Source: Sulfuricellaceae bacterium (GTDB taxonomy: Bacteria; Pseudomonadota; Gammaproteobacteria; Burkholderiales; UBA9220). Taken from it: 24,161 nucleotides of DNA. The stretch covers positions 1 through 24,161 of the forward strand of contig JAIOJO010000067.1 in assembly GCA_019911985.1 (NCBI GenBank), written 5' to 3'. Below the pieces are notes generated by a model. It worked only from the letters and a program-made list of their open reading frames with translations. It was not told the origin of the DNA and searched no databases. The translations under genes and the position numbers were made by a program. Numbering within the stretch: position 1 is the stretch's first letter; each line of letters begins with the position of its first letter. Of the stretch, positions 7,699 to 15,305 are shown in pieces.

Positions 7699-7774
7699 GC
7701 CGGCATAGCTCAGTTGGTAGAGCAGCTGATTTGTAATCAGAAGGTCGAGGGTTCGATTCCTTTTGCCGGCACCA
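7699..7774 (+). tRNA. tRNA-Thr(TGT)
   Basis: 76-nt cloverleaf: acceptor GCCGGCA/TGCCGGC, D arm, anticodon loop TT-TGT-AA, TTCGATT T-loop, encoded CCA. Confidence 0.97.
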
Positions 7775-7873: not shown

Positions 7874-7946
7874 ATACCCCCGAAACATGGGGGTATATTC
7901 TGGGGTACATCACATGCCAATGTGATTTACAGAAGGATATACCCCC
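7874..7946. repeat. Left cluster of GGGGGTAT motifs (probable integrase arm sites)
   Basis: ATACCCCC 7874-7881, GGGGGTAT 7889-7896, TGGGGTAC 7901-7908, ATACCCCC 7939-7946; matched by a pair at the right end. Confidence 0.65.
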
Positions 7947-7949
7947 ACC

Positions 7950-9188
7950 ATGGCACTTAAAGACCTGGAAATACGCAACGCCAAGCCACTCGATAAGCCC
8001 TATAAGCTCGCAGACAGTGGGGGTATGTACCTTGAAATCAGGCCCAACGGCTCGAAGTATTGGCGCCTGAAATACCGCTTCGGAGGAAAAGAGAAGCTGC
8101 TGGCGCTGGGGGTATATTCAGCACCAGGGCGCCCAGCTTCCGAAGCCGTCACATTGACCGAGGCGCGCAAGCGGATGGCCGAGGCCAAGAAACAGATTCG
8201 GGACGGCATAGACCCCTCCCACCAGCGCAAGGTGGAGAAGATCACCAAGACACAGAACACAGCAAACACCTTTGAAGGCGTGGCCGATGAATGGCTGGAA
8301 AAGTTCGGCGTCAAGAAAGCAGCGTCAACCATGGAGAAAACCCGCTTTATCCTCCGGCGTGATGTGTTCCCGTGGCTGGGGGCGCTACCCATTGCGGAAA
8401 TCAAGCCTTCCGACCTACTGGCAGTCCTGCAAAGGATTGAAAGCCGTGGCGCCCTGGAGACTGCCCACCGTGCGAAGCAATACGCTGGGCAGATATTCCG
8501 CTACGCCGTGGGCACCAAGCGAGCCGAGCGGGATATAACGCAAGACCTCAAGGGCTCACTGCCCGCCCCCAACGTGAAGCACCGAGCAGCCATTACCGAC
8601 CCCGTAAAGTTCGGTGAACTGATCCGCGCCATTGATGGCTTCAATGGAACATTCACGGTCAAGTGTGCCTTGAAGTTGGCACCTCTGATCTTTGTGCGCC
8701 CCGGCGAGCTGCGACAGACGGAATGGTCCTGGGTGGATATGGACGCCGCGACGATCTGCTACCCAGCTTCCGTGATGAAAATGCGAGAGGATCACATAGT
8801 CCCGCTATCCAACCAGGCGCTTGAAATCCTGCGAGAGATTCAGCCGCTTACCGGGCGCGGCAAGTATGTATTCCCCAGCATCCGAACCGGAGAACAACCC
8901 ATGAGCGAGGCGTCGATTAACGCGGCACTTCGGCGCCTTGGGTACGACAAGACGGAAATGACCGGCCACGGATTCAGGGCAGCCGCCAGGACGATCATGG
9001 ATGAGGTGCTGGGCTTCCGTGTTGACCTGATAGAGCATCAGCTCGCCCATGCCGTCAAAGACCCCAACGGACGGGCCTACAACCGCACGGCGCACCTTCC
9101 CCAACGGAGGGAAATGATGCAAGGCTGGGCAGATTATATTGACGGGCTGGCGAGCGGCGCGAAGGTGTTGCCGTTCAAGGCTGCGTAG
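7950..9188 (+). CDS. int: P4-family tyrosine integrase with N-terminal arm-binding domain
   Basis: KPYKLADSGGMYLEI..NGSKYWRLKYRFGGKEKLLALG N-domain; catalytic R (VRPGE), HGFR, QLAH and AYNR all intact. Confidence 0.97.
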   Translation: MALKDLEIRNAKPLDKPYKLADSGGMYLEIRPNGSKYWRLKYRFGGKEKLLALGVYSAPGRPASEAVTLTEARKRMAEAKKQIRDGIDPSHQRKVEKITKTQNTANTFEGVADEWLEKFGVKKAASTMEKTRFILRRDVFPWLGALPIAEIKPSDLLAVLQRIESRGALETAHRAKQYAGQIFRYAVGTKRAERDITQDLKGSLPAPNVKHRAAITDPVKFGELIRAIDGFNGTFTVKCALKLAPLIFVRPGELRQTEWSWVDMDAATICYPASVMKMREDHIVPLSNQALEILREIQPLTGRGKYVFPSIRTGEQPMSEASINAALRRLGYDKTEMTGHGFRAAARTIMDEVLGFRVDLIEHQLAHAVKDPNGRAYNRTAHLPQRREMMQGWADYIDGLASGAKVLPFKAA

Positions 9189-10363: not shown

Positions 10364-10606
10364 ATGGCAGCCCAACTTGCAGAACTCAACACCCAGCGCC
10401 TCACCATCCTTCGCCGTCGAGAAGTTGAACGGCGCACCGGACTTTCCAGAACGTCCCTGTATGAACGCATTGCAGCCGGAACCTTTCCGCGCCCTGTAAA
10501 TCTTGGCGGAGGGCAGAGTGTTGGCTGGTATGAACACGAAGTAGAAACGTGGATTTCCAGCCTCCCCCGTGCCCGTGCGGGCGAACGCGCCGAATCCGCC
10601 AAGTAA
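10364..10606 (+). CDS. alpA: AlpA-family regulator / recombination directionality factor
   Basis: ILRRREVERRTGLSRTSLYERIAAGTFPRPVNLG..SVGWYEHEVETWI is the AlpA pattern. Confidence 0.95.
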   Translation: MAAQLAELNTQRLTILRRREVERRTGLSRTSLYERIAAGTFPRPVNLGGGQSVGWYEHEVETWISSLPRARAGERAESAK

Positions 10607-10616
10607 GGCGGGCGCA

Positions 10617-10820
10617 ATGAAAAATCACTCCAAAACCAACTACAGAAACGTTCCTGGCGGCAGCGGACTAAACCCTAACACCCGAGGGCCAATGATTCCC
10701 GTTGCGCTTGAGGACTTGCTAACCAGCGGCTCCCGTACCCAACGCCGTTGGGCATCAAAAGAGCTGCGCAAGTTGTCCCGCGAGAAGGTGAAAGCGAGTA
10801 GCGAAGGGAGCGCGGCATGA
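10617..10820 (+). CDS. Small basic hypothetical protein (67 aa)
   Basis: Fills the alpA-primase gap; stop overlaps the primase ATG (ATGA). Confidence 0.55.
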   Translation: MKNHSKTNYRNVPGGSGLNPNTRGPMIPVALEDLLTSGSRTQRRWASKELRKLSREKVKASSEGSAA

Positions 10821-11647
10821 TTAGCTTCGAGCGTAAGTTTCTTGATGCTCTCCGATCTGCCGGACTGGAGCCAGTGAAGGCCGACATTGACGCTGATGGC
10901 GTATTGCACCGTTACCGAGTAACGGGCGACAAGGCAGGCAGCATGAACGGCTGGTACGTGCTCCACGCTTCCCCTGTTCCTGCTGGCGCTTTCGGCTCCT
11001 GGAAAACAGGCGAAACTCACTCCTGGCGTGATGATGTAACCAGGACTGCCACCCCGGCAGAGCGTGCCGAGTTGCAGCGACAAATGCAGGCCATGAAAGC
11101 GGCGCGTGCCGAGGAGGAAAGGCGCGTGCGGGATGCTGCCAGAGCCAAGGCCGCCAAGCTGTGGCTGATGGCCAAGCCTGCACCGGGCGATCATCCCTAC
11201 CTGGCGCGAAAGCGGGTCAAGGCATGGGGTCTGCGGCAGTTGAACAACATGCTGTTGATCCCGGCTCGCGATGCCGCCGGGCAGCTCCATACCCTGCAAT
11301 TCATCGGCGCTGATGGCAACAAGCGGTTCCTGACAGGCGGGCGCATTCAGGGCTGCTATTACGCAATTGGACGGGTTCGCGGCGCGGTGCTGGTGGCAGA
11401 GGGCTATGCCACGGCAGCAAGCATATTTGAGGCGTCTGGCCATGCCGTGGCGGTGGCCTTCAACGCCGGGAACCTGGAGCCAGTGGCGCGTGCAATACGT
11501 TCAAAATTCCCAAAATTGCACATTGTCATTTGCGCCGATGATGACACGGCGACACCCGGCAACCCCGGACTGACCAAAGCGACCGAGGCGGCACGCGCTG
11601 TGCATGGCTGGGTGGCAAAGCCTGATTTCAGCGGGGTGGCGGCATGA
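10817..11647 (+). CDS. Toprim-domain DNA primase (TraC/P4-alpha-like, no zinc finger seen)
   Basis: LQFIGADGNKRFL.GG, VAEGYATA, VAFNAGNL and ICADDD Toprim motifs. Confidence 0.9.
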   Translation: MISFERKFLDALRSAGLEPVKADIDADGVLHRYRVTGDKAGSMNGWYVLHASPVPAGAFGSWKTGETHSWRDDVTRTATPAERAELQRQMQAMKAARAEEERRVRDAARAKAAKLWLMAKPAPGDHPYLARKRVKAWGLRQLNNMLLIPARDAAGQLHTLQFIGADGNKRFLTGGRIQGCYYAIGRVRGAVLVAEGYATAASIFEASGHAVAVAFNAGNLEPVARAIRSKFPKLHIVICADDDTATPGNPGLTKATEAARAVHGWVAKPDFSGVAA

Positions 11648-13212
11648 GCGCCGTCATGACTGATTTTAATGACCTGGCGCTTGCTGCTGGCCCTGATGTG
11701 CTGCTTCAGCAGTTGGGCAAGGCGAAGCCAGCAACGCCACTCAATAACCCGGCTGAATGGCCTGATCCGCTGCTCCCCGGCAAGATCAACGTTCCCGACA
11801 TTCCAACGTCCATTCTCCCTAGCTGGGCTGGCGCGATGGCGCAGGCGGTGGCGGATAGTACCCAAACCAGCCCCACGCTGGCGGTGATGCTGACCCTTTC
11901 CGTTCTTGCCACTGTGCTGCAACGCCGCTTCGAGGTGGCCCCATATGGCGCTGATGATGACTACAGCGAGCCGTTGGCGGTATGGACCTTAACCGGGCTG
12001 GGCAGCGGGAACCGCAAGACGGCGGTAATCAATTCCCTCGCCGCCCCGCTGGTGTATTGGGAGAAGTTGGAGCGCGACCGTATGCGGTCCGAGATTGCAC
12101 GGGTAACAGCGGCGCGGGCGGTGGGAAAGAAGCGTATCGAGAAACTGCTCAAGGACGCCAGCAACGCGGACAACGACGATTCCAGAGCACGGATTCAGGC
12201 GCAGATTCAGCAGGAGGAGGAAGCCATGCCAGCCGAGGTTAGAGCGCCACGGCTTTACACCGGGGACTGCACGGCGGAGCGTTTGCAAGGGCTGCTGGTA
12301 GAACAGGGCGAACGCATGGCGGTTTTGTCTGATGAGTCTGGCATATTCCTGATTATGGCCGGCATCTACTCGGGCGGCATTGCCAACCTGGATGTATTCC
12401 TACAGGGACATGCCGGGACGCCCATGCGCGTGGATCGTGCCGAGCGATCCGCCCATATCGACAAGCCCGCCTTGTCCTTCGGCCTGGCGCTGCAACCCGG
12501 CGTGATGGCTGACGTGGCCAGCTCACGGCGCTTTCGGGATAGCGGCCTGCTGGCGCGATTCCTGTTCGCCATGCCTGAATCAAACGTGGGCAAGCGTGAC
12601 GTGCGGAGGCGCGTGACGATCCCCGAGCATGTCCGGGCGGCTTACGCGCGCGGTCTGTTCGCCCTGCTGGAACAGCGCCCTGCAGTACCAGGAAACCCAA
12701 GGATCATTCCATTTACTGAACAGGCGCTTGATTGCTGGATAGATTTCGCTGAGGAGATCGAGACCCAGCAGGGCGAGGGCGGAAAGCTGGAAGGGATTGC
12801 CGATTGGTCATCAAAGTTACCCGGTGCGGCGGCGCGGGTTTCGGCGCTGCTGGAGTTGGCAGAAGTGGGCCTGCACGCCGAAAGCGTAAGTCACCAGTCA
12901 GTGGCGCGGGCGGTGGAGTTGGGCGGCCTGCTGATCCCACACGCTCAGGCGGCATTCGGCCTGCTGGGTGCGGACGCTACTGAGGCAGACGCCAGCGCCA
13001 TTGTGAAGTGGCTACGCGAGAACAGCAGCGGTTACTTCAAGCGCAGTACATGCCAGAAGGCGATGGAGGGGCGATTCCGTACCGTGGACAAGCTCAAGAA
13101 GGCGCTGGATAGACTGGTCCAGTGTGATGTGCTCAGAGAGGAAAAGCTACCAAACAAAGGTGCACCGCCAAGCATTTGCTATCGAGTCAATCCGAAGTGT
13201 CTGTCTACATGA
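11644..13212 (+). CDS. DUF3987/YfjI-family replication (helicase-like) protein
   Basis: Degenerate P-loop GLGSGNRKT, TAERL, VLSDE, SGLLARFLF, winged-helix-like C-terminus; coupled to the primase by ATGA. Confidence 0.85.
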   Translation: MSAVMTDFNDLALAAGPDVLLQQLGKAKPATPLNNPAEWPDPLLPGKINVPDIPTSILPSWAGAMAQAVADSTQTSPTLAVMLTLSVLATVLQRRFEVAPYGADDDYSEPLAVWTLTGLGSGNRKTAVINSLAAPLVYWEKLERDRMRSEIARVTAARAVGKKRIEKLLKDASNADNDDSRARIQAQIQQEEEAMPAEVRAPRLYTGDCTAERLQGLLVEQGERMAVLSDESGIFLIMAGIYSGGIANLDVFLQGHAGTPMRVDRAERSAHIDKPALSFGLALQPGVMADVASSRRFRDSGLLARFLFAMPESNVGKRDVRRRVTIPEHVRAAYARGLFALLEQRPAVPGNPRIIPFTEQALDCWIDFAEEIETQQGEGGKLEGIADWSSKLPGAAARVSALLELAEVGLHAESVSHQSVARAVELGGLLIPHAQAAFGLLGADATEADASAIVKWLRENSSGYFKRSTCQKAMEGRFRTVDKLKKALDRLVQCDVLREEKLPNKGAPPSICYRVNPKCLST

Positions 13213-13229
13213 TCGAGTTATTCGCCATA

Positions 13230-13377
13230 AAGCTTATTTAAGACTATTTATATTTAATATCAATTACATAGTGAGATAGAGCATGACACCCAATCGAAAA
13301 AGTCGAATAAGTCGAAGAAGCCAAATAAATCAACCAGGGCCATTTTTCGGTAATTCGACTTTTTCGACTTATTCGAT
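13230..13377. repeat. AT-rich tract plus inverted 9-bp iteron-like arrays (putative ori)
   Basis: TCGAAAAAG/TCGAATAAG/TCGAAGAAG tandem at 13294-13320; reverse-complement copies at 13359-13376. Confidence 0.65.
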
Positions 13378-13420
13378 AGGGGTTAGTCGCCGGGATAGGG
13401 AGGTGCGAATAGTACCCATA

Positions 13421-13508
13421 GGGGGTGTAAATCCCTGGAGCGCAAAGCCTATAGACCGGCTGTGTAGTCATATTTTTGCGTGCGCGAGTTTAGTGGGGGG
13501 GGTATCCC
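13421..13508 (+). other. cos-like packaging signal candidate
   Basis: GGGGG...ACCG...GTCA-TA-TTTTT-GCGTGCGCGAG...G8 layout, resembling cos regions of HK97-like phages (recalled, not aligned). Confidence 0.4.
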
Positions 13509-13545
13509 GTGGAGAAAGTCATCAATTCCAATGATTGGAGGTTTT

Positions 13546-13812
13546 ATGAGTACCTGTTTGAAGTGCGGTTTACCCATTGAAGGGCAGGCTGAGACCGGAA
13601 GGCCGAAGTCCTATTGCTCTGTTGGATGTAGGCGATCGGCAGAGCATGAAGTGAGGCGCATCAATTCGCTGCTTCAAAAACTTGAGACTGATCTGAGCAA
13701 TGCTTTGCTGGGCCGTGTATGGGCCGACCAGGTTCCCAAGATCGAGGCCGAGATTTCACGACAAGAAACGCGGTTGCGGATTCTGCTTGATACCGATGAA
13801 TTTGAAAAATAA
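13546..13812 (+). CDS. Hypothetical zinc-finger/coiled-coil protein (88 aa)
   Basis: GGAGG RBS; CxxC...CxxxC (CLKC, CSVGC) followed by an amphipathic helix. Confidence 0.75.
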   Translation: MSTCLKCGLPIEGQAETGRPKSYCSVGCRRSAEHEVRRINSLLQKLETDLSNALLGRVWADQVPKIEAEISRQETRLRILLDTDEFEK

Positions 13813-13887
13813 TTTTCACCACCAAGGCGACATGGGCCGCCCTGGATGGATTATTTAGCCCACAACAACCAAAAAGGAATGCAAAAA

Positions 13888-14169
13888 ATGTTAGGACAAT
13901 CACTACTTATCGACGGCGCATTGGCCGGGGCAATTTCAGATGCAAGCCAGGTTAGCGTTTTAGGCCTGGGCATCAAATCCGCGCTGACCGGCTCTTTAAC
14001 TATCACTGGAATGGCAAACACGGATGGCTCACCGGCAACCTGGACGATTGCGCCGGGAGGTTCTGGCGCTTATTCGCCGCCCGCTGCTGGTCTCGCAAGT
14101 CACCTGAGTTATGCCCTGAGCAGTGCCGCAGACTTGGGAAAAGTGTTTATCGCATTCCGCCCAATTTAA
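13888..14169 (+). CDS. Hypothetical small Gly/Ser/Ala/Thr-rich, beta-strand-like protein (93 aa)
   Basis: AAGGA RBS suits ATG 13888 (alternative 13879); alternating hydrophobic pattern. Confidence 0.65.
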   Translation: MLGQSLLIDGALAGAISDASQVSVLGLGIKSALTGSLTITGMANTDGSPATWTIAPGGSGAYSPPAAGLASHLSYALSSAADLGKVFIAFRPI

Positions 14170-14183
14170 CAAAGGAAAATATT

Positions 14184-14921
14184 ATGCAATTAGCAAACCT
14201 GATTAAAAATCTGAAACTCGGCCCCGATGCCCGCGAAGAACTTGATCGCGTACTGGCGCTACCAGAGGTGGAAGCGATCCTCTCTCGTGAGGAGCATAAA
14301 ACCATCGCTCACCGCCGCGAACTGATGAAGAAGTTGGCAGGCGTGCCAGGGCGTCACTCGAAGTCGATTGAAATCGCCAACCGGAAACTGGCAGAAGCCC
14401 ACCACCTGGCCGAAAAACTGGAAGCCGAACTCATCGAGGCGAAGGCCGCGCACCGCATGGCCGGAATGCTCGCCGATGGCGCGAAACGCGAACAGGAAAA
14501 CGAGCAGGCCGAACTGGTCGCGGAACTTCACGCCGGGAGAGATCGCCGTCTGGATGATCTGTATTTGGCCTTGGACAAGCTCGCCGACCAGGCGCGCGGG
14601 CTGGTGCGAATCTGGCCTCAAACTTACAAAAGTCCACTTGGCTCCCGTGAGGTGCGTTACGTCGGTAACTCTGTCGAGGTGGAAGATGCCCGCAGTTCCA
14701 TACTCGCGGCTCAGCGCAAACTGGAGGCTTTCGCCCTTGGATCAATGACCCGGCAGGAAATCACTGACAGTATGGCGGAAATCTGCGCCAATCTGGTCAA
14801 GCCGCTGGATGCGCTGGACTTGGTGGCACCTTCCATTGATGAAAGTGGCGCAGTAACACAACCCAAAGTCAAAACGGGGGTTGATCTTACGTCCAAACGC
14901 ATCGAGGAGGCCGCCGCATGA
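14184..14921 (+). CDS. Hypothetical coiled-coil protein (245 aa)
   Basis: AAGGA RBS; long E/A/K/L-rich heptad-like N-terminal half; stop overlaps the next ATG. Confidence 0.8.
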   Translation: MQLANLIKNLKLGPDAREELDRVLALPEVEAILSREEHKTIAHRRELMKKLAGVPGRHSKSIEIANRKLAEAHHLAEKLEAELIEAKAAHRMAGMLADGAKREQENEQAELVAELHAGRDRRLDDLYLALDKLADQARGLVRIWPQTYKSPLGSREVRYVGNSVEVEDARSSILAAQRKLEAFALGSMTRQEITDSMAEICANLVKPLDALDLVAPSIDESGAVTQPKVKTGVDLTSKRIEEAAA

Positions 14922-15121
14922 GTCGAGATTTCGAAATTTCGCACAAGAGCGCCTGCGATGCCCTTGGGCTTCAAGCAAATGCACTTGCTTGTATCCCTTT
15001 GGCGTACAGGATAAACCCAGACGGCAGCCGGGTTTCCTGGGCAGCCGACATTGCGCGGCATTTGCGATTGAAGTACCCAGCCCGCGCCTTGGCGAAGATG
15101 AGTTTGAGCCTAACCAAGTAA
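14918..15121 (+). CDS. Hypothetical protein (67 aa)
   Basis: GAGGAGG upstream, ATGA coupling with the previous gene, followed by a hairpin and T run. Confidence 0.55.
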   Translation: MSRDFEISHKSACDALGLQANALACIPLAYRINPDGSRVSWAADIARHLRLKYPARALAKMSLSLTK

Positions 15122-15143: not shown

Positions 15144-15165
15144 CCGGCCTTTGCGCCGGCTTTTT
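15144..15165 (+). terminator. Weak terminator after the last element gene
   Basis: CCGGC/GCCGG stem followed by CTTTTT. Confidence 0.45.
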
Positions 15166-15202
15166 CATTTTCCAACTAAACAAGGGGTAGCAAAATGAAA
15201 GT

Positions 15203-15222
15203 GGGGGTATATTTGGGGGTAT
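15203..15222 (+). repeat. Right pair of GGGGGTAT motifs (probable integrase arm sites)
   Basis: GGGGGTAT at 15203-15210 and 15215-15222; 12-bp period, same as the left pair. Confidence 0.65.
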
Positions 15223-15279
15223 AAATTGGGCAAAATATTTTTGCATCTAAGCCTATGGCTGTTCTCAGGCAATTATTTC

Positions 15280-15298
15280 ATTCCTTTTGCCGCACCAA
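15280..15298 (+). repeat. attR core (displaced, damaged tRNA 3' fragment)
   Basis: 19 of 20 nt match to 7756-7775 with one G missing. Confidence 0.85.
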
Positions 15299-15305
15299 CA
15301 TCATC

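Follow-up and report, generated by a model that had tools for sequence, protein, structure and literature searches.

Two unnamed protein families of small integrated islands in Proteobacteria, with a possible role in satellite capsid assembly

A four-gene operon at positions 13,546 to 15,121 of a 24,161-nucleotide (nt) stretch of DNA from a Sulfuricellaceae bacterium (contig JAIOJO010000067.1 of assembly GCA_019911985.1; the whole stretch is hereafter called the window) encodes proteins of 88, 93, 245, and 67 amino acids (aa). An earlier note, made from the sequence alone, had proposed these genes as a possible kit by which a phage satellite exploits its helper phage. In this work, we show by comparison of sequences and gene neighbourhoods that the 245-aa and 93-aa proteins represent two unnamed, island-only families linked to head-assembly genes. 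The reading that we put forward is a satellite capsid-assembly kit, pairing a size determinant that resembles a scaffold with an accessory protein of the capsid, of which the window island would be a minimal version; we place its likelihood slightly below even, and consider it somewhat more probable that the 245-aa/93-aa pair serves virion assembly of some kind rather than acting as cargo. The gene context supports the general idea of helper exploitation for the 245-aa and 93-aa proteins; for the 88-aa and 67-aa proteins, functions in packaging or regulation are no more than a guess. The more specific roles named in the earlier note (terminase redirector, virion decoration, external scaffold) are conjectural. 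The operon and its flanks are organized as follows:

13230..13540, no strand: non-coding stretch 5' of the operon, with inverted iteron-like repeats at 13294-13376
13546..13812, plus strand: 88-aa zinc-ribbon and helix protein (CLKC at residues 4-7, CSVGC at residues 24-28; GGAGG 5 nt 5' of the ATG)
13888..14169, plus strand: 93-aa all-beta single jelly-roll protein (unnamed family A7)
14184..14921, plus strand: 245-aa elongated helical protein of an unnamed satellite-only family (A3), a candidate scaffold or size determinant
14918..15121, plus strand: 67-aa protein, whose ATG overlaps the stop codon of the 245-aa gene as ATGA (translational coupling)
15144..15170, plus strand: intrinsic-terminator-like hairpin (15144-15159) and T run, the end of the operon

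The four open reading frames (ORFs) with ribosome-binding sites and the terminator described in the earlier note are all present on the plus strand, a Shine-Dalgarno-like sequence preceding each gene. For the 93-aa gene a longer 107-aa frame from 13846 exists; all relatives begin with MLGQ, and 13888 was taken as the start. The closest sister element, L002, is a 5.7-kb metagenome contig that carries the trio of 93-, 245-, and 67-aa genes, with amino-acid identities to the window of 78 %, 64 %, and 68-71 % and ratios of nonsynonymous to synonymous substitution rates of 0.25, 0.22, and 0.42, respectively. These ratios of 0.22-0.42 indicate purifying selection on the trio, and therefore that its genes are real. 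A third contig, P0006, shows the order 93-245-73, with a 73-aa gene in the place of the 67-aa gene. The Toprim primases of the window and L002 are only 41 % identical, as against 64-78 % for the trio (window 10817-15121 versus L002:1447-5659), which implies either that the module has been exchanged between islands or that constraint acts much more strongly on the module than on the replicase. Free variation among sister elements, which the earlier note held to speak against its proposal, is accordingly seen for the 88-aa gene but not for the trio, which is steady and more conserved than the primase.

None of the four proteins had a meaningful match in Pfam, PHROGs, NCBIfam, or PADLOC (PADLOC-DB 2.0), so the unrelated known families that would have counted against the proposal did not turn up. 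No small terminase (TerS) profile of Pfam or PHROGs was matched by any of the four; in sister islands, TerS is encoded by a gene of its own. When 50,697 phage records were searched by tblastn, no match to the 88-, 93-, and 245-aa proteins emerged.

The extent of the 245-aa family was established with a profile of three close sequences scored exhaustively against 1.84 billion representative proteins, in which 210 representatives passed E<=1e-3 and 103 of these also passed E<=1e-10. The members are nearly all full-length (~215-325 aa), a few of the listed matches being shorter fragments. Word-index searches with the 245-aa and the 93-aa protein had recovered no more than two near relatives apiece. 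No member of the 245-aa family turned up in six-frame profile searches of ~860 further genomes, each representing a species and drawn from samples by class, by phylum, and of relatives, weak matches being rejected as coiled-coil noise; pattern scans for the family gave nothing in genome contigs and IMG/VR and two loci in metagenomes. A literature search found no paper describing the 245-aa or 93-aa families, whose named public records read "hypothetical protein", with a single exception labelled "efflux pump" by automatic annotation.

In total, 15 independent genomic contexts of the 245-aa family gene were assembled, with membership confirmed by hmmsearch. Where there is enough flanking DNA to judge, the surroundings of the gene are those of a small island that has an integrase, AlpA, or replicase gene. 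Co-occurrence, an analysis suggested in the earlier note, supports its general idea for two of the four genes: the 245-aa and 93-aa families were found only in small integrase/primase islands, often together with genes for an S49 peptidase, TerS, or a tape-measure-like protein. The accompanying virion genes are distributed over the contexts as follows:

Peptidase_S49 gene: 8 of 15 contexts, the immediate neighbour of the 245-aa family gene in 7 (gaps of -4 to 48 nt)
Small terminase gene nearby: 5 of 15 contexts
Tape-measure-like gene, 730-990 aa (Tape_meas_lam_C): 5 of 15 contexts
Portal gene: 1 of 15 contexts
Major capsid or large terminase gene: 0 of 15 contexts

The family is carried by two cultured isolates, Burkholderia ubonensis (L024, the island encoding WP_060026674.1) and Ralstonia mojiangensis (L023, the island encoding WP_252691326.1). 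The island of B. ubonensis (L024:5800-20915) and those of L007, L014, L019, and L020 combine a tape-measure-like gene with the S49 head protease, and often with TerS, and are devoid of capsid, large terminase, and tail-tube genes.

The S49 proteins of the islands belong to phrog_53, "head maturation protease", with E-values of 1e-69 to 1e-85. They are 260-338 aa long and cover the phrog_53 profile only at positions ~11-350 of 583, and the version in a lambda-like Ralstonia prophage fragment has 416 aa. Since the island proteins are short and profile positions ~350-583 are unmatched, they lack the C-terminal extension. In phage lambda, gpC (Peptidase_S49) carries the scaffold Nu3 in its C-terminal part. 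Judged by their lengths and profile coverage, the island proteins look like protease-only versions with a separate ~245-aa helical gene attached. The 11.8-kb record "Ralstonia phage YO013_3" was considered as a satellite and rejected, being a lambda-like prophage fragment.

The replicase differs between these islands. It is of the Toprim+DUF3987 type in six, DnaB in L018, and AAA_25 in L019 and L023; L024 has a phage-type replication initiator, and L008/L009 a primase-like partial ORF. Retention of the 245-aa gene across three replicases, together with its attachment to the head protease, fits a core gene better than swappable cargo. The same evidence bears on the idea that the 245-aa protein is a replication accessory working with the primase-helicase at a nearby iteron origin. 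In every case the gene follows closely on the replication genes, and in the window it also comes soon after the iteron-like repeats; however, the family is retained in islands with a different replicase (Toprim+DUF3987, DnaB, AAA_25), and between the window and L002 the 245-aa protein is much better conserved than the primase. A replication role is therefore extremely improbable in our view.

The tape-measure-like genes bear on another explanation, in which the 245-aa protein is a tail-assembly helper, i.e., a chaperone or partner of a satellite-encoded tape-measure protein (TMP). The phage-inducible chromosomal island-like elements (PLEs) assemble chimeric tails using a TMP and a chaperone that they encode themselves, and tmp genes occur in other satellites (PMC12987554). 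One third of our contexts contain such a gene, and in L014 a 248-aa family member lies directly 5' of a 750-aa tape-measure-like gene. Yet the available DNA of the other ten contexts, including the complete window island, has none, a count that is an upper bound as several of these contexts are short contigs; in L013, L023, and L025, several kb of sequence beyond the module also lack it. Adjacency to the S49 protease is far commoner than adjacency to TMP, and the size and fold of the 245-aa protein are unlike those of the known small frameshifted chaperones. A tail-assembly role for the 245-aa protein is very unlikely on this balance.

An AlphaFold2 model of the 245-aa protein, built from an alignment of 133 family sequences, had a mean predicted local distance difference test score (pLDDT) of 95.6. 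The model starts with short N-terminal helices; residues 27-117 form an unbroken 91-residue helix, residues 121-209 a helical bundle that includes a beta hairpin, and the chain closes with a C-terminal helix. The protein, which the earlier note described as a long coiled coil, is thus not a plain coiled coil. Fold searches with this model (Foldseek against PDB and BFVD, exhaustive VIA-align, and the ESM Atlas) returned only generic helical-bundle matches to residues 118-230, the best VIA-align match having Z 8.8 over residues 118-222, and the family profile had nothing below E 0.03 among all PDB sequences. Comparison with the P4 proteins Sid and Psu, for which the note had recommended structural searches, revealed no sequence similarity: hhalign of the 133-sequence profile gave a probability of 0.5 % for Sid and 0.15 % for Psu, and there was no Psu (PF07455) match in Pfam. 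The Atlas lead to Psu (rank 21, score 0.86) is below the Atlas trust mark. The fold matches include no Sid-like chain, a result that says little about a Sid-like external cage. The 245-aa protein ends in AAA (window 14907-14921), and an AA end is found in 23 of the 133 family members versus ~3 expected from composition; such AA/AAA ends resemble an ssrA-type C-terminal degradation tag.

For the 93-aa family, a second profile search yielded 17 relatives; in six contexts, among them the distant islands L018, L019, and L020, a member adjoins the gene of the 245-aa family. The beta-rich character noted for this protein was borne out by its AlphaFold2 model (pLDDT 90.8), which is all-beta and forms an eight-stranded single jelly roll. 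The best solved match was the PR772/PRD1 P31 penton protein (Z 6.7, root mean square deviation (rmsd) 3.0, 81 residues aligned), and the KHP40 trimeric cement protein was also matched (Z 6.0, rmsd 3.0, 82 aligned); all solved matches have Z<8 and hence indicate the fold class only. Further solved matches were Ena pilus subunits and nucleoplasmin pentamers (Foldseek template modelling (TM) score 0.58), and the three best Atlas clusters consisted of small, purely viral hypothetical proteins (TM 0.74-0.82). In Pfam and PHROGs the 93-aa protein matched no decoration or cement family (lambda gpD, DUF2190, etc.).

In L007, the slot before the 245-aa family gene is filled by an unrelated 147-aa protein (phrog_28483), whose phage homologue (56 % identity) is encoded in Bradyrhizobium phage ppBdUSDA122-1, immediately 3' of the gene for the major capsid protein; the gene order there is HNH, large terminase, portal, S49 peptidase, and major capsid. 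This position indicates that the slot can hold a head-module protein, and the head module of ppBdUSDA122-1 points to a probable helper type. Two related small orphan proteins, encoded before the 245-aa family gene at L024:9649-9945 and L025:3430-3693 (98 and 87 aa, both ending ...GW.LAQ), are unrelated to the 93-aa jelly roll and to phrog_28483.

Taken as a capsid-assembly hijack module, the 245-aa/93-aa pair could operate in the following way. The 245-aa protein would act as a satellite scaffold or size determinant on the HK97-type capsid protein of the helper, its 135-angstrom helix serving to oligomerise or span and its C-terminal bundle to bind. The S49 prohead protease would then remove the scaffold; most islands would bring their own protease, and the minimal island of the window would borrow that of the helper, on which it would depend for both protease and terminase. 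The 93-aa jelly roll would attach to the capsid surface or vertices as a cement-like accessory. In a bolder version, the 245-aa proteins would be satellite scaffolds that set capsid size, of a class without structural precedent, working with an own or borrowed S49 protease; the 93-aa protein would cement the resulting small capsid, and Burkholderiales-type islands would also re-equip the tail with their own tape measure. This version we regard as doubtful.

Several observations weigh against a capsid-assembly kit. The window island itself has no S49, TerS, or tape-measure gene, and for this island the interpretation is carried over from its relatives; moreover, the order of the accompanying genes is shuffled between islands. 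The functional evidence consists throughout of gene neighbourhood, and no helper phage was identified for these islands. Neither homology nor a fold match to known scaffolds (Sid, Psu, and solved scaffolds) was found for the 245-aa protein, and the solved structures matched by the 93-aa model, all at Z<8, speak only to its fold class. By hhalign, the 245-aa family had no similarity to a phage S49 protein with the C-terminal extension or to a helper-type capsid protein, so the proposed scaffold function rests on position, shape, and analogy. Finally, the accessory region adjoining pri in phage-inducible chromosomal islands (PICIs) is a documented hot spot for immune genes, e.g., Tai (PMC11364771).

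The last point belongs to the main rival explanation, namely that the operon is anti-phage defence or interference cargo whose products would block the assembly of competing or helper phages instead of building satellite particles. Its genes lie directly 3' of the DUF3987 gene, the 88-aa gene differs between sister elements, and L025 carries restriction-like cargo just 3' of the module: genes for FRG-domain, N6_N4 methylase, and ResIII helicase proteins at L025:6249-13403, on the opposite strand, which by their domain content look like restriction- or defence-type cargo. Set against these observations, no PADLOC model was matched by the four proteins (Tai is newer than PADLOC-DB 2.0), and the 245-aa gene both persists across islands with three replicases and stays beside the head protease. 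The 245-aa family was, in addition, not seen in prophage moron positions, the tblastn search of the phage records being empty. We consider defence cargo unlikely, and keep the capsid-assembly kit as the preferred reading.

A further explanation would make the 245-aa and 67-aa proteins regulators of the helper-satellite switch and not structural parts; they could serve in antirepression, late-gene activation, or the sensing of derepression, in the manner of P4 epsilon or delta. The 67-aa protein is conserved and translationally coupled and has no detectable relatives beyond the sister elements. Its pattern is helix/beta-wing/helix, and the Atlas links it weakly to Cox and helix-turn-helix families (score 0.89, below 0.9). 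The ATGA overlap of P4 sid and delta is the same as that of the 245/67 pair, and in L020 an HTH_17 gene lies immediately 5' of the 245-aa family gene. On the other hand, none of the four proteins matches a DNA-binding family, hhalign detected no similarity between the 67-aa protein and AlpA-like proteins, and the 245-aa model has no recognisable DNA-binding fold; a steady adjacency to the head protease would not be expected of a regulator either. We therefore rate a switch function as quite unlikely.

The 88-aa protein has a weak match to phrog_13372, whose function is unannotated (E 7.9e-4), and an Atlas hit to a cluster of 91-aa hypothetical proteins, partly from phages (score 0.96, TM 0.87). 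Its gene is not found in L002; there the slot (L002:3244-4409) is filled by an HNH endonuclease gene, which is followed, after a 135-nt gap, by the gene for a Terminase_4 small terminase and then by a 130-aa orphan gene. HNH beside TerS is the usual layout around the cos sites of HK97-like phages. The earlier note had also placed a cos-like site upstream of the operon. A cos reading of 13421-13508 was not reproduced, in checks that did not go into depth: blastn against the 50,697 phage records gave no match, the stretch has no second copy in the genome, and it shows no similarity to the same region of the sister loci.

The operon lies at the end of a ~7.5-kb island that extends from the 3' end of a tRNA-Thr gene to an imperfect repeat of the same end. 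The other features of the island are as follows:

7699..7774, plus strand: tRNA-Thr(TGT), whose 3' end is the left attachment site (attL)
7950..9188, plus strand: tyrosine integrase (Pfam Arm-DNA-bind_3, Phage_int_M, Phage_integrase)
10364..10606, plus strand: AlpA-like small DNA-binding protein, clustering with Phage_AlpA proteins of sister loci
10817..11647, plus strand: Toprim primase (Pfam/PHROGs), part of the replication module 10817..13212
11644..13212, plus strand: DUF3987 helicase-like protein (Pfam/PHROGs), part of the same module
15284..15303, plus strand: right attachment site (attR), an imperfect copy of the tRNA-Thr 3' end with 13 exact bases, then CACCAA after the loss of one base

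The features by which satellites are recognized, i.e., an integrase, an AlpA-type regulator, an own primase/replicase, and flanking attachment repeats, are present, and the ten island ORFs scanned gave no Pfam or PHROG match to capsid, portal, large terminase, tail, or lysis genes. No S49 remnant was found 3' of the 245-aa gene in the window, and the single S49 match of the source genome is on a different contig. From this gene content and these ends, the island is a PICI/P4-like phage satellite integrated in tRNA-Thr, and the four genes are its terminal operon.

Repeats of the TGGGGGTATA type occur near both ends of the island, with one direct and one inverted copy inside attL (window 7888-7947) and two tandem copies inside attR (15202-15233); they are probably arm-type binding sites of the integrase. 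Among public sequencing runs, the island was present only in low-depth contigs of a bioreactor metagenome. The assembled contigs of these runs contained no excision or circle joint, and the depth of the island was about that of its flanks. In a landfill metagenome run, X4, fragments of contigs match parts of the 245-aa gene (window 14329-14915) at 96-99 % identity, which indicates that a very close relative of the island exists outside the source bioreactor. Elsewhere, related orphan proteins of 459 and 216 aa are encoded after the module at L018:11862-13241 and L020:8556-9206, respectively; the 216-aa protein matches phrog_13702 ("terminase large subunit", E 2e-9), and is far too small for this function and has no Pfam match.

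These comparisons define two conserved, satellite-only families with confident models, no known relatives, and a neighbourhood tie to a head-maturation protease. Because carriers such as Burkholderia ubonensis and Ralstonia mojiangensis are cultivable, the candidate mechanism is directly testable. The 245-aa and 93-aa families could also be used in metagenomes as markers of an unnamed group of proteobacterial satellites.

The remodelling of helper capsids by satellites is understood in only a handful of cases, those of Sid, CpmAB, Ccm/Rcm, and TcaP. Sid and TcaP form external cages, whereas CpmB is an internal scaffold; if the proposed function is true, the 245-aa scaffold would be an independent solution beside these cages and CpmB. 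The sid-delta-psu genes of P4 are similar in being the terminal operon of a small integrated satellite, in encoding a helical product of nearly the same length (Sid 244 aa, compared with 245 aa), in the ATGA overlap with the next gene (sid/delta and 245/67), and in including a small putative capsid accessory. They differ in that the window proteins have no sequence relation to Sid or Psu and a different gene order, and in that P4 lacks the S49 protease, TerS, and tape-measure-like genes by which relatives of the window module are accompanied. The CpmA/CpmB, Ccm, and Rcm proteins of the Staphylococcus aureus pathogenicity islands (SaPIs) resemble the proposed kit as satellite proteins that alter the capsid size of the helper, CpmB being the helical internal scaffold of SaPI. 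However, the proteins described here match no solved chain and are unlike the SaPI proteins in size and predicted fold, and their hosts are Proteobacteria with a helper type that has an S49 protease.

The comparison with lambda gpC concerns the protease: the gene beside the 245-aa family is of the same type (phrog_53), and in lambda the scaffold is encoded within the stretch of the protease. In contrast to gpC, the satellite proteases have no C-terminal extension, and the 245-aa family is not similar to the S49 protein that has it. The PLEs of Vibrio cholerae (TcaP scaffold, TMP, chaperone, chimeric tails) are alike in carrying virion-assembly parts of their own without a capsid gene, and the sister islands described here also have tape-measure-like genes. 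The window island, by contrast, has none, and the helpers of PLEs are virulent myoviruses, whereas the present islands resemble parasites of temperate cos-type siphoviruses (HNH-TerS in L002). Satellite-encoded tape measures have so far been proven only for PLE (PMC12987554). Tai, whose proteins block tail assembly, is found in PICIs at the same island position, directly 3' of the primase genes (PMC11364771). It differs in being a single gene that occurs mostly in phages, whereas the 245-aa family was not found in the phage records searched and is linked to head-assembly genes; Tai was set apart from the 245-aa family by its description rather than by sequence. A satellite module exploiting the virion assembly of a helper is thus of a known kind, while the proteins themselves and the link to a satellite-borne head protease appear new.

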